Part shown: piece by piece, positions 18,617-50,848 of the stretch
Layout: each line of letters starts with the position of its first letter
Numbering within the stretch: the stretch's first letter is position 1
Source of the DNA: a virus
Lineage: Duplodnaviria; Caudoviricetes
DNA length: 64,000 bases
Virus record (IMG/VR): IMGVR_UViG_3300031088_000782
Coordinates: 128,001 to 192,000 of that record
Direction: 5' to 3' (one strand)
Translations under genes and position numbers: made by a program
The notes under the pieces: model-generated
The model's database searches: none
What the model was told of the DNA's origin: nothing
The model's input: only the letters and a program-made list of their open reading frames with translations

Positions 18617-18689
18617 TCCCTGATAAGTCTCAAGAGGTAGAGCTGGCAATACGCGTCCGGTTGTGGGTTCAAGTCCCACTCATAGGGAA
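18617..18689 (+). pseudogene. tRNA-like element with bulged acceptor and no clear anticodon loop
   Basis: TCCCTGA...TCATAGGGA; T arm GTGGG-TTCAAGT-CCCAC. Confidence 0.5.
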
Positions 18690-23682: not shown

Positions 23683-23832
23683 AACAATCAGTGGCGAAAT
23701 ATATTGGGATACGCGGCTGTTTAGTAGCCTAAGTTTTTATAAATATGGCGAAACACGGCTATACGGTGAAACTTGCTGGGAAACTTTCAAGTGGCACTTA
23801 TGTGTGTAGGTTCGAGTCCTACCTGATTGTTT
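23683..23832 (+). ncRNA. About 150-nt Leu-like composite tRNA with two D-arm-like segments
   Basis: AACAATCAG/CTGATTGTT acceptor; TGGCGAAA..TACG occurs twice; variable arm and T arm GTAGG/CCTAC intact. Confidence 0.55.
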
Positions 23833-24964: not shown

Positions 24965-25038
24965 TACTGTGTAGTTTAATGGCAAAACACTAGGCTCTTA
25001 AAGCTTAGCATATAAGGTTCGAATCCTAATCACAGTTG
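24965..25038 (+). pseudogene. Degenerate tRNA-Lys(CTT)-like gene with a 9-nt anticodon loop
   Basis: CTAGG-CTCTTAAAG-CTTAG; mismatched T stem. Confidence 0.55.
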
Positions 25039-25287: not shown

Positions 25288-25356
25288 TAAGCTAACTACA
25301 ATGGAAACATGAGAATGGTAGGATAGCGATGGTAGGTTCAATTCCTACTGGCTTAA
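25288..25356 (+). pseudogene. tRNA-like element with scrambled central arms
   Basis: TAAGCTA/TGGCTTA-A acceptor; GTAGG-TTCAATT-CCTAC. Confidence 0.45.
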
Positions 25357-29830: not shown

Positions 29831-29879
29831 CAAAACAGTGAAGTAGAGACATCTATGTTTCTGTTTTAGAATAAATTGA

Positions 29880-30038
29880 AGAATAGTGATCCATGTTGGT
29901 AGAGATAGGGCACTAATGACCTAAGTTTTGTATAAGATGTTATTCAAAATATGGCGTGAATGTCCTAAAAGATGTAAAATAAAATGAAAAGATTATGGAT
30001 GCAGTCTTATACACGCAGGTTCGATTCCTGTTATTCTT
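29880..30038 (+). ncRNA. tRNA-like RNA with about 100 nt replacing the anticodon arm
   Basis: AGAATAG/TTATTCT acceptor, D-like ATC..TTGGTAGAGAT, T arm GCAGG/CCTGT; internal TATAAGAT/GTCTTATA stem. Confidence 0.5.
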
Positions 30039-30048
30039 TAATTATTTT

Positions 30049-30183: not shown

Positions 30184-30257
30184 GGGGATGTTGCATAATG
30201 GTAGTGCCTCTGCCTTCCAAGCAGACGGTGCGGGTTCGATTCCCGTCATCCCCTCCA
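30184..30257 (+). tRNA. tRNA-Gly(TCC), with encoded CCA
   Basis: Loop CTTCCAA; ends TCCA. Confidence 0.93.
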
Positions 30258-30406
30258 GGGACGCGTGAACATTAAATTAAGTCCAAGTTGCGATGGATAC
30301 TGGTTTAGTGCTGTTACACTAATATTTTAGACCGCTAATCTAAAATTCGAAATTCAGGACAGAAATGTTGCTGATACTTGGGATTCGATACCCAAGCGTT
30401 CCACCA
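30258..30406 (+). ncRNA. 149-nt tRNA-Ala/tmRNA-like RNA with encoded CCA
   Basis: GGGACGC/GCGTTCC-ACCA with G3-U70; T arm CTTGGG-ATTCGAT-ACCCAAG; multibranch insert. Confidence 0.7.
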
Positions 30407-30617: not shown

Positions 30618-30800
30618 CGATTGTCAAAAAATATTGAAAAATAATTTGACAATAATTATTAATTATGCTAAGATTAACTTGTTAAATCAAATTGAGGACT
30701 TATCAAGAAGATAACGAGATTATAGATTTGACAAGCGTTAAAAAATAGTTTATAATTAATAATATAAAGCGGTTTGGAAACTTAATAGTGGAAAATATAT

Positions 30801-31818: not shown

Positions 31819-31892
31819 CAAATTAGTTTAAAAAATATTTGAATAATGATTTGACAATCAAAATAAAAGTATGTTAGACTAATAATGTCAAA

Positions 31893-31939
31893 GAGAGATT
31901 GAGGACTTGTTCAGAGAAACAACGAGATAAGGATTTGAC
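31893..31939 (+). repeat. About 45-bp inter-promoter repeat (copy at 35445-35490, degenerate copy at 30691-30731)
   Basis: GAGAGATTGAGGACTTGTT(C)AGAGAAACAACGAGATAA.GATTTGACA lies between tandem sigma70-type promoters. Confidence 0.75.
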
Positions 31940-32077
31940 AGAAAATAAAAAATATGTTAAACTTAAACAAGAAACACAGCAACAAAGTTTGATAAATGAA
32001 TAAAGAAAAAGTTAAACAATAAATTTGACAAGTTTGAAAAACTTTGATAAACTTATTGAGTAACAAAAACAAAATAT

Positions 32078-32378: not shown

Positions 32379-32551
32379 CTTAGATGTAAATGCCGATTAG
32401 GTTAGTAACCTCCTGTGTGAGCACGACTTGGTAACGCCAAGATATTTACATCATTAAATTTTTGATAAGTTGAAAAACTTTGATAAAAAATTTGACAAAC
32501 GATATAAAAATTTGGTAAAATAAGTTTGTTAAAGAAAAAATAAAAGAATAT

Positions 32552-39217: not shown

Positions 39218-40138
39218 ATGACTAAATATCACATAAATCCTGAAACAGAAAGAGTAAATATCTGTCGTGCTGAAAAGAAGTGCCAGTTTGCAGACGATCA
39301 AGGAAATGAACCACCACACTTTAACACTAAACAAGAAGCGCGCGCCTATAACGAAAATAATCTTAAAAAAGAATTAGGAACTTTCTCAACTATTTCAAAA
39401 ACAAAAAATAGTAAAAAGAAAATTAACACTTTGACAGAAAACGAAAATATTGAATTAACAAATAAAATGGTTAATGAATTTAATAAAATGTATAAATCTT
39501 TATCTAATACAGAACAAAGAGCAATTGATTATTACACTTTTTGTGGATCATCTTCAATGAATAGACTATTACATGGAACCCCAAGAGAAGATGAAGAAGC
39601 TTCAGTAGAATCCACTATGAAACATATTAAAAATCTTGATAATGTTATAAATAGACACTACGAGGAACACAAAGGAGAAAAGAAAACTTTGTATCGTTAT
39701 CTTTCATTAGACAAGAATACTGATGTTAATGAATTTATAAAAGAAAATTTTCAAGAAGGTAAAGAATATTCTGATACCGGGTTTATGAGCACTACTGAAG
39801 ATATTTCTTTTATTGCTGGATATGCTAAAAAGCACAGTAGAAACAGAAAGTTTGTTATTTTAGAGATGGAAACAGATAAAGGAATAAGTTGCCAAAAACA
39901 AGAAGAGCAAACTGGAACTATCCAAAGCTTTGAAAAAGAAAGATTATTACCACGAAATATGAAATTTAAAGTTGATGAAATTTTTGAATCAAATGTTAAA
40001 ATTGATAAATCAAGAGAAAAACTTCATAAACAATTTGGGGGAAATGGTTATATGTTAAGCGAACACATTAATTATATTCCATCTAAAAAATTCAATTTTA
40101 TCAAACTAATAGAACAAGAGGACAATAAAAGTGACTAA
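39218..40138 (+). CDS. VIP2/Alt-like mono-ADP-ribosyltransferase with H-C-C-H leader
   Basis: R-S-EXE signature: LYRY, GFMSTT, FEKERLLPRN. Confidence 0.88.
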   Translation: MTKYHINPETERVNICRAEKKCQFADDQGNEPPHFNTKQEARAYNENNLKKELGTFSTISKTKNSKKKINTLTENENIELTNKMVNEFNKMYKSLSNTEQRAIDYYTFCGSSSMNRLLHGTPREDEEASVESTMKHIKNLDNVINRHYEEHKGEKKTLYRYLSLDKNTDVNEFIKENFQEGKEYSDTGFMSTTEDISFIAGYAKKHSRNRKFVILEMETDKGISCQKQEEQTGTIQSFEKERLLPRNMKFKVDEIFESNVKIDKSREKLHKQFGGNGYMLSEHINYIPSKKFNFIKLIEQEDNKSD

Positions 40139-41567
40139 ATATCATATAAGCGATTCAGGTAAAGTAGTCATTTGTCGTGCAACTAAAACTGTTTGCCCAA
40201 AAGAAAATTTTGACAGTATTGAAGATGCTGAAAATTTTAAAGAAACTCTATACAATAATACTATTCCAACTATGTCTAAACAGTCCAATAAGGGACTTAG
40301 GGAAGCTGAAAAGTATTATGGCGGTAAGTTCCTCACTTATCATAATATATCGCTTGAAAAAGGCGTAGAAAGCGTTTTAGATGATTTGAAAAAGATAGGG
40401 AACCCATTAATTGTTGGCGGGGCTGTAAGAGATTCGTTTGTAGGATCAGAAAATAAAGATATAGATATCGAAGTTCATAAAACAGATATAGACACACTTG
40501 TTAAAACATTGAAAAATGATGGATATATAGTTGATGAAGTAGGAAAACAATTCGGTGTTCTCAAAGTTTCTAAAAAAGGTGTTGTGAATGACTTAGACAT
40601 ATCTGTTCCTCGTAAAGAAAATCGTTTAGGAGCAGGTCATCGATCTTTTAATGTTGAAATGGATGAAAATATGACCGTTCAAGAATCTGCGGAAAGAAGA
40701 GATTTCACTTTCAATGCTGTCATGTATGATCATACAAGAAAAGTTATCATCGATCCTTCTGGTGGAAAGAATGACTTAAACAATAAAGTCATTCGTCATG
40801 TTTCTGAGAAATTTTCTGAAGATCCTTTAAGAGCTTTGAGAGGATTTCAGTTTGCAGGTAGATTTGATATGACTGTTGCTCCTGAAACAGCAACTTTATG
40901 TAAAAAATTGAGAAATGAATATGAACACTTGTCAATAGAAAGGGTGCAAGAAGAGTGGGGTAAATTCTTCACTAAAAGCGCACACCCAGCAAAAGGAATT
41001 CAAGCTTTAAAAGATATGGGATGGAATGACACTATACCCGGACTTCAAAAAGCATTAGACAATTCTTTTACAAAAGAATCTCTGAATAATCTCCCTACTG
41101 TCAGCAAGCAGAATAAAATAATTTTCGGATCTGCTGCTATCGCTCGAAATATGAATAATAACGAAAGAAAAAGTTTTATCTCTTCAACAGTCATTGGAAA
41201 TAAAGAGCAATTAAAAACTTATACTCTTAGCAGTTTTGACAATAATGAAGCCAGAACTTCTTATGAAAGAAAAAAAATTGCTAAAAAACTTGAGAAAACA
41301 GGCTTTACCTTTAGAGATTATCATAATTTCTCTCAAATGAATAATGACAGCGAAGGTGTTAAATTAAGTGAGAAAGCTGTTGCTGAAGGTTTAGCGGATG
41401 GCCCTGAAAAAGATTTGATTGCTGGTAAAGATATTTTTTCTTTGACTGATAAAAAACCTGGTCCTTGGATGGGTAAATTATTGAATGAAATAAGAGACAA
41501 ACAGTATCAGGGTGCTTTTTTAAATAAAAATGAAGCAATGATGTTTGCAAAAAGTAGAATACAGTGA
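40131..41567 (+). CDS. cca: Class II tRNA nucleotidyltransferase (CCA-adding) with extra N-terminal leader
   Basis: VGGAVRD, DIDIEV, RRDFTFNA, EDPLRALR, ERVQEEW, PGPWMG. Confidence 0.9.
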   Translation: MTKYHISDSGKVVICRATKTVCPKENFDSIEDAENFKETLYNNTIPTMSKQSNKGLREAEKYYGGKFLTYHNISLEKGVESVLDDLKKIGNPLIVGGAVRDSFVGSENKDIDIEVHKTDIDTLVKTLKNDGYIVDEVGKQFGVLKVSKKGVVNDLDISVPRKENRLGAGHRSFNVEMDENMTVQESAERRDFTFNAVMYDHTRKVIIDPSGGKNDLNNKVIRHVSEKFSEDPLRALRGFQFAGRFDMTVAPETATLCKKLRNEYEHLSIERVQEEWGKFFTKSAHPAKGIQALKDMGWNDTIPGLQKALDNSFTKESLNNLPTVSKQNKIIFGSAAIARNMNNNERKSFISSTVIGNKEQLKTYTLSSFDNNEARTSYERKKIAKKLEKTGFTFRDYHNFSQMNNDSEGVKLSEKAVAEGLADGPEKDLIAGKDIFSLTDKKPGPWMGKLLNEIRDKQYQGAFLNKNEAMMFAKSRIQ

Positions 41568-50463: not shown

Positions 50464-50813
50464 GGGGATGCATTAGGTTTCGACTTATGATCTGATTATT
50501 AAAAAGCAGGTAGCCATTAAGAAGTTGGCTTTAAAAAATCTTAAACAAATAATTGCAAACGCAAATAAAAACGCTTACGCACTAGCTGCCTGAGCCGTTC
50601 ATATTAGATATATTGTTCTCGATACTAATATGAACGTCATTTTAAGAGAACACTTTACCTGAACTAAGTTTCATAAGGATAAAGTAAAAGAAACTAAACT
50701 AAATATAATTTTTGGCAACAGTTGAAATATTTAGTTAATAAACAGTTGCGAAACCTGTAATTCTTTTTAATATGACAATCGTAAGGACAGGGGTTCGACT
50801 CCCCTCATCTCCA
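50464..50813 (+). ncRNA. ssrA: tmRNA; tag (A)NANKNAYALAA* at 50555-50593
   Basis: GGGGATG...GGTTTCGAC 5' end; GGGGTTCGACTCCCC T arm; CATCTCC-A with G3-U70; tag ends YALAA. Confidence 0.93.
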
Positions 50814-50848
50814 CGATTATTTTTATTTCAAAAACAAGGAGAGCTATT

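Follow-up and report, generated by a model that had tools for sequence, protein, structure and literature searches.

Phage tRNA arrays are usually read as a codon supply or as spare parts against host defence. Stable RNAs found within such phage clusters have been proposed to act, for example, as protein sponges or scaffolds. In phage T4, two stable RNAs, rnaC (species 1, 139 nt) and rnaD (species 2, 119 nt), lie directly after tRNA-Arg in the tRNA cluster, and we know of no function for either. YrlA-type bacterial and phage Y RNAs are tRNA mimics bound by Ro60 (PMC4201824). For tmRNA, the tag-less, domain-only molecule of Mycobacterium phage DS6A (tmRNA Website ID 11587) is a published phage-borne precedent, and a molecule similar to it inhibits tmRNA, perhaps by titrating SmpB (PMC4131195). 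Finally, the bacterial alanine identity set comprises A73, G2-C71, G3.U70, G4-C69, and G20 (PMC9976931), and minihelices made of the acceptor and T stems are charged with alanine by alanyl-tRNA synthetase (AlaRS), according to a passage of the same source that cites Francklyn and Schimmel 1989.

Here we describe E3, our name for a 149-nt tRNA-like RNA gene in the tRNA array of a giant phage-like element. E3 is one of three known members of a small RNA family, not described before, that occurs in the tRNA arrays of such elements (0.3-0.7 Mb). We compare its fold, its acceptor end, and its genomic setting with those of the systems above.

The E3 gene, its array, and its homologues

The stretch of DNA analysed (the window, 64,000 nt) corresponds to bases 128001-192000 of a 309,534-bp IMG/VR record (35% G+C). 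Proteins of this record are also on record on a 681,645-bp contig. The window carries 66 tRNA genes, a one-piece tmRNA (50464-50814), and an SRP RNA, as called by ARAGORN and Rfam, and encodes a TilS-like enzyme, a CCA-adding enzyme (40131-41567), and several homing endonucleases. Relatives of the TilS-like protein (49-89% identity) are encoded on contigs of up to 727 kb, which places the source within a clade of giant phage-like elements. Searches of the 309-kb record, possibly no more than a part of the 681-kb contig, revealed no SmpB, AlaRS, or Ro60/TROVE gene. Promoter-like blocks repeat among the array spacers (30626-30759, 31830-31966, and others), including TTGACA-17-TATAAT at 30728-30756, so the array seems to consist of many small transcription units.

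E3 follows a tRNA-Gly(UCC) gene, and the original prediction that it starts at the base after the CCA of that tRNA was borne out, as was its acceptor stem GGGACGC/GCGTTCC with G3.U70, A73, and CCA (Table 1). The encoded CCA had also been described as rare in the array, and it is: across the array (17134-47763), nearly all tRNA genes encode a C after the discriminator and no further CCA letters, and just 2 of the 66 window tRNAs, the tRNA-Gly at 30184 and a tRNA-Met at 32551, encode the full triplet. G3.U70 is likewise restricted among these 66 tRNAs to two tRNA-Ala genes. The minimum free energy of E3 is -41 kcal/mol (z = -3.1), and we consider it very probable that E3 is a genuine structured RNA gene.

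Table 1. Features of E3 and its upstream neighbour, homologous copies, and differences in related strains. Positions refer to the window unless a locus or E3 numbering is given.
Feature	Position	Strand	Basis or comment
tRNA-Gly(UCC), encoded CCA, fused upstream of E3	30184..30257	+	ARAGORN; Rfam tRNA 67.7 bits
E3, complete 149-nt gene	30258..30406	+	R2 187 bits, R3 150 bits
Acceptor stem, 5' strand (G1, G2, G3...); position 7 paired in window copy only	30258..30264	+	
Closing helix (E3 8-11/57-60) enclosing long hairpin I	30265..30317	+	9/15 pairs covary
Hairpin II, 8 bp, 7-nt loop of unconserved sequence	30324..30346	+	8/8 pairs covary, 100% of cells paired
AAAU, invariant, single-stranded, 5' of hairpin III	30350..30353	+	Three-sequence alignment
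Hairpin III, 8 bp	30354..30374	+	6/8 pairs covary, 100% of cells paired
T-arm, 5-6 bp stem, 8-nt loop (9 nt in L096)	30377..30396	+	Alignment
Acceptor stem, 3' strand; U70 at 30400	30396..30402	+	G.U in 3/3 members
Discriminator A73 (30403) and genome-encoded CCA (30404-30406)	30403..30406	+	ACCA invariant in 3/3
E3 homologue, 148 nt, 542-kb contig	L096:3595-3742		R2 61.3 bits, E = 2e-13
E3 homologue, 148 nt, 16-kb contig	L103:7703-7850		R2 35.5 bits, E = 4.5e-7
Strain difference A>G	E3 18		Pair kept as G.U (A-U to G.U)
Strain differences U>A, G>A, A>U	E3 32, 35, 36		Loop of hairpin I
Strain difference U>C	E3 63		Junction; all four strains
Strain difference G>A	E3 113		Bulge of hairpin III
Strain difference U>C	E3 127 (30384)		T-loop; all four strains; TTCGA -> CTCGA

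Homologues were sought with R2, a covariance model built from the E3 sequence alone, in the tRNA arrays of relatives, which were reached through exact TilS-protein look-ups in Logan and ENA contigs. Beyond E3 itself, R2 matched the L096 and L103 copies alone, with no false positives. With the three-sequence model, R3, the 256 kb of loci searched yielded these three copies and no others, and the 309-kb record yielded one. Pairwise identity among the members is 47-53%. Each copy lies 2-3 nt behind a tRNA (Gly, Pro, or Ser), and a tRNA-Ser directly follows the L096 copy. The contig of the closest relative (L013) begins about 600 nt too late to include the E3 gene.

Other searches added no members. 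TilS-guided searches returned no relatives in IMG/VR and only cellular TilS (at most 43% identity) in JGI metagenomes; blastn of the region against phage GenBank matched the flanking tRNAs and nothing else; and exact or degenerate DNA patterns in IMG/VR and GTDB contigs gave either nothing or unsupported matches (L100, L109, L110). Rfam 15 had no family for E3 or the L096 copy, either at the gathering threshold or at E <= 10. Complementary 11-13-mers that might mark an antisense partner occur in the genome at about the number expected by chance, with none beside the gene.

Three covarying hairpins in place of the decoding arms

In the structural alignment of the three members, 95.4% of cells formed standard pairs and 29 of 47 pairs had changed on both sides, values to be read with the alignment having been fitted to the model structure, which favours that structure. 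Sliding the partner columns by 1-3 lowered pairing to 35-42%, and none of 500 shuffles reached the observed values. The L096 copy folded independently into the same layout. From 5' to 3', this layout consists of the acceptor strand, the closing helix with hairpin I, hairpin II, the AAAU segment, and hairpin III, followed by UA and one further base, the T-arm, the acceptor 3' strand, and ACCA. Three covarying local hairpins thus stand in for the D, anticodon, and variable regions of a tRNA.

Hairpin I is built from E3 13-22/44-53 and 24-28/37-41, with an invariant U15.G51 and a variable 8-nt loop. Hairpin III contains an invariant G.U (E3 101-112) and a bulged purine at 113, and ends in a GAAA loop in two of the three members. 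The T-arm stem, TTGGG/CCCAA, adjoins the acceptor stem and closes a loop of 8 nt rather than 7, in which only UCRA is conserved; the position equivalent to U54 is U, C, or G across members. Pair 7-66 forms in the window copy but in neither homologue, and position 66 covaries with the base just 5' of the T-stem (C-G, C-G, G-C). The consensus is therefore 6+6 bp rather than 7+5, and the acceptor/T-arm stack of the family is 12 bp long.

The anatomy originally drawn from the single sequence was right at the ends and for one internal hairpin, and largely wrong in the core. TTTTAGA/TCTAAAA (E3 68-74/82-88) forms 7/7 pairs in all three members and covaries. The long-range stem that had been proposed to close the core did not hold up: its GTCC/GGAC half retains 1/4 and 0/4 pairs in the homologues, and its AACATT/AATGTT half competes with hairpin III (E3 97-117), which forms 8/8 pairs in all three members, six of them covarying. 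A second small hairpin, TTAGTG/CACTAA (E3 48-53/60-65), keeps 2/6 and 1/6 pairs in the homologues and is also broken in all four related strains by U>C at E3 63. The absence of an anticodon arm was supported, since no loop sequence is conserved, the Rfam tRNA model (RF00005) did not match E3 at E <= 10, and ARAGORN called no tRNA at E3 either without introns or with introns of 0-400 nt.

Variation among close relatives was examined on contigs from four runs belonging to four studies, in which E3 is about 96-97% identical. All seven differences listed within E3 fall at unpaired positions or keep the pair, and among the differences listed, the 62-nt spacer 3' of E3 and the neighbouring 161-nt element change at about twice the rate of E3. 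The change to CTCGA in all four strains indicates that the 'T54' position is free of tRNA-like constraint. The loop of hairpin I (30286-30293) reads A-G-U-UGC-G-A, which resembles an alanine anticodon loop, and reads A-G-U-AGC-A-U, also alanine, in two strains; because this string is missing from L096 and L103, we treat it as a relic or a chance occurrence.

Alanine-charging marks and a proposed role

All three members share G1-C72, G3.U70, A73, and the encoded CCA without change, while pairs 2-71, 4-69, 5-68, and 7-66 vary. That a wobble pair persists among changing neighbours points to selection for the wobble. At the level of sequence, these marks, kept at 47-53% identity among covarying neighbours, support the original description of E3 as aminoacylatable. 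E3 thus resembles tRNA-Ala and its minihelices in presenting G1-C72, G3.U70, A73, and CCA on a 12-bp coaxial acceptor/T stack of the kind read by AlaRS (PMC9976931). Unlike tRNA-Ala, it lacks both a D arm and a 7-nt loop presenting a conserved anticodon. The remaining identity elements are also incomplete: G2-C71 is present in two of three members (G.U in L103), G4-C69 in two of three (A-U in the window), so that each is absent from one member, and E3 has no equivalent of the D-loop G20 and no G18G19 partner for the T-loop. We give the charging of E3 with alanine in vivo about an even chance.

We propose that E3 is an RNase P-released, AlaRS-chargeable, non-decoding tRNA mimic, a reading to which we assign roughly balanced odds. 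The upstream tRNA and E3 would be transcribed together, and host RNase P would cut at G1 of E3, which in the window would also leave tRNA-Gly with a finished CCA end. Given the 2-3 nt that separate each copy from the tRNA before it, a single RNase P cut at each junction would free both neighbours with finished ends. The mature 3' end would come from the templated CCA, without RNase Z or the CCA-adding enzyme, and E3 would then be alanylated by host AlaRS, which reads G3.U70 and A73 within the acceptor helix. With neither an anticodon nor a tag frame, E3 would be unable to decode or to serve as a messenger. Its acceptor end, charged or uncharged, would most likely engage, as a decoy or handle, some factor that recognises the acceptor ends of tRNAs. 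A specific partner would probably bind the conserved 3' module, which consists of AAAU, hairpin III (including the G.U and the bulged purine), and UA. This role outside translation is less certain than charging.

The elbow of tRNA is touched by RNase P, EF-Tu, and the CCA-adding enzyme. Given its non-canonical 8-9-nt T-loop and the missing G18G19 partner, the elbow of E3 may differ from that of a tRNA. The encoded CCA could also be kept for RNase P to recognise or to stabilise the 3' end, and not for charging, and G3.U70 could descend from an ancestral tRNA-Ala.

These last points lead to the strongest alternative, in which the tRNA-like end is no more than a processing and stability handle. 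E3 would then never carry an amino acid and would act through its three hairpins, perhaps as a sponge or scaffold for proteins. The 3' CCA is read by bacterial RNase P, and under this explanation, it is templated because an odd substrate needs it for RNase P, while G3.U70 is a relic or the site of another factor. Many other non-tRNA structured RNAs lie between the tRNAs of the array, T4 rnaC and rnaD occupy a like position after tRNA-Arg, and rnaC likewise combines a T-arm with an imperfect acceptor-like stem. Furthermore, the most conserved unpaired bases of E3 lie in the 3' module by hairpin III and not only at the acceptor end, and the T-loop is non-canonical. However, a handle alone requires neither a G.U at exactly 3-70 nor A73, both of which are invariant while 4-69, 5-68, and 7-66 change, and the hairpin loops, where contacts are usually made, show no conservation. 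We regard an uncharged processing handle as possible, if doubtful.

E3 compared with tmRNA and other tRNA-like RNAs

The acceptor stem with G3.U70, A73, and CCA in all three members is common to E3 and tmRNA, and E3 would work partly like the tRNA-like domain of tmRNA. The original prediction went further and suggested a tmRNA tRNA-like domain without a tag frame, separate from the real ssrA gene. The separation stood, given the complete one-piece tmRNA at 50464-50814, whereas membership in the tmRNA family was not supported. The tmRNA models include a D-loop analogue, the helix P2a, and a canonical T-arm. No tmRNA-clan covariance model matched the window copy or the L096 copy at E <= 10, while the same Rfam library scored the domain-only tmRNA of DS6A (L107:28478-28560), included as a positive control, at 43.2 bits (E = 6.5e-14). 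ARAGORN called no tmRNA at E3. The element's own tmRNA contains GGUUUCGAC near its 5' end and GGAC before the T-arm, and neither string is present in E3. Because the tmRNA models recognise DS6A but miss E3, and because the strings of the element's own tmRNA are absent, we do not file E3 as a tmRNA. A candidate tag frame, running from GCG at E3 33 to UAA at 63, was rejected, as its sole stop is lost in all four related strains; the frame is not conserved in the E3 homologues.

DS6A nevertheless offers the nearest likeness in design, being phage-encoded, with G3.U70, A73, and a T-arm, with neither an anticodon arm nor a tag frame, and presumably an AlaRS substrate. The DS6A gene is 83 nt long and recognised by Rfam, whereas E3 is 149 nt long, goes unrecognised at E <= 10, and differs in its three covarying hairpins, its 8-9-nt T-loop, and its 6+6 bp acceptor/T stack. 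Also unlike that of DS6A, it shares its genome with a complete tmRNA. A second alternative would make E3 a domain-only derivative of tmRNA with SmpB as its ligand, tuning or blocking trans-translation in the host, the role suggested for DS6A. The alanine acceptor marks, the T-arm, the CCA, and the missing tag frame speak for this explanation. Against it stand the failure of every tmRNA-clan model at a threshold that DS6A clears at 43.2 bits, the missing GGUUUCGAC and GGAC strings, and the lack of an SmpB gene among those found in the 309-kb record, and the complete tmRNA at 50464-50814 fits poorly with a block of that pathway. We judge this explanation to be quite improbable.

The weakest alternative, that E3 is a tRNA-Ala gene broken by decay or insertion (a pseudogene, or a tRNA that becomes normal once its intron is spliced out), could draw on the alanine-anticodon-like loop of hairpin I (U-UGC-G, or U-AGC-A in two related strains) and on a relative's tRNA-Thr-like gene with an insertion of about 50 nt in its anticodon loop (L097:12278-12402), but it is extremely improbable, since covariation in three distant homologues points to selection on a non-tRNA fold, the 8-nt loop sits on an arm of about 20 bp with no alanine anticodon in L096 or L103, D-arm remnants are lacking, ARAGORN is negative even with introns allowed, and ARAGORN calls two normal tRNA-Ala(UGC) genes in the window. 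The L097 gene itself has a normal acceptor, D arm, and T arm, with an anticodon stem that encloses about 53 nt; it reads like a tRNA-Thr(UGU) with an insertion of about 50 nt after the anticodon, possibly a small intron.

The T4 RNAs share with E3 the genomic setting alone; they have neither homology nor identity marks in common with it, and their internal folds differ. The end of rnaC has a canonical T-arm next to the imperfect acceptor-like stem, with no regular 7-bp acceptor stem seen, hence no clear G3.U70, and with no encoded CCA. Run with filters off, R2 scored 11.4 bits on rnaC, mostly from the T-arm, which does not indicate homology. The likeness to YrlA lies in an anticodon-less tRNA mimic encoded among tRNA genes. 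YrlA RNAs have a sealed acceptor end, with their free ends placed in the stem that binds Ro. E3 has the opposite topology, with free ends that form the acceptor stem and ACCA, and the TROVE/Ro60 domain (PF05731) is absent from the 309-kb record. A TROVE/Ro60 protein is encoded inside the tRNA array of a related element (L098:14919-16487).

Several other unusual RNAs were observed in these arrays. Two long tRNA-like genes in the window, at 23685-23830 (146 nt) and 29879-30039 (161 nt), have a perfect 7-bp acceptor stem, a canonical T-arm, a D-arm-like region, and roughly 70-90 nt of extra folded RNA, and share the motif CCTAAGTTTT...ATATGGCG. Neither has G3.U70, and Rfam 15 gave no family for these neighbouring long elements at the gathering threshold or at E <= 10. 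Canonical T-arm motifs also occur in ARAGORN-negative spacers at 18663, 25288-25356, 27986, 29105, and 29179, some with matching acceptor strands, and 25288-25356 is a 69-nt tRNA-like element. At 24966-25037, ARAGORN calls a tRNA with the anticodon TTA, which would read the UAA stop, although its Rfam score is weak (31 bits) and its acceptor is paired at 6/7 positions; the 146-nt element at 23685 also shows a UUA-like loop.

In related elements, L015:547-669 and L098:6729-6851 represent another, distinct RNA family, 123 nt long, that has G3.U70 and A73 but lacks an encoded CCA. Its fold includes a canonical T-arm and four internal hairpins, and six pairs are compensatory between the two copies. 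This family has no Rfam match, and its model, R1, finds no copy in the genome studied here. R1 does not detect E3, and a place for E3 in this family was rejected. The array that contains the L096 homologue also holds a 63-nt mini tRNA-like gene (L096:2723-2785) with G3.U70, A73, a T-arm, and a core of about 20 nt.

Standard tools (tRNAscan-type models, ARAGORN, and Rfam 15) miss the class to which E3 belongs, and the R3 model provides a handle for finding more members and for testing partners. A broader and unlikely extension of our proposal is that giant phage-like elements carry dedicated alanine-accepting, non-decoding RNAs, either as bait for host defence enzymes that attack acceptor ends or as an alanine donor or tag-less adaptor for ribosome rescue. 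If so, bait or donor RNAs would make up a new class of viral RNA effectors that exploit the G3.U70 rule. Inside a phage tRNA array, E3 retains alanine-charging features and a pre-made CCA and drops the parts needed for decoding. If it is charged, E3 would be a natural, selectable example of a virus using the acceptor-helix rule, the 'second genetic code', outside translation.
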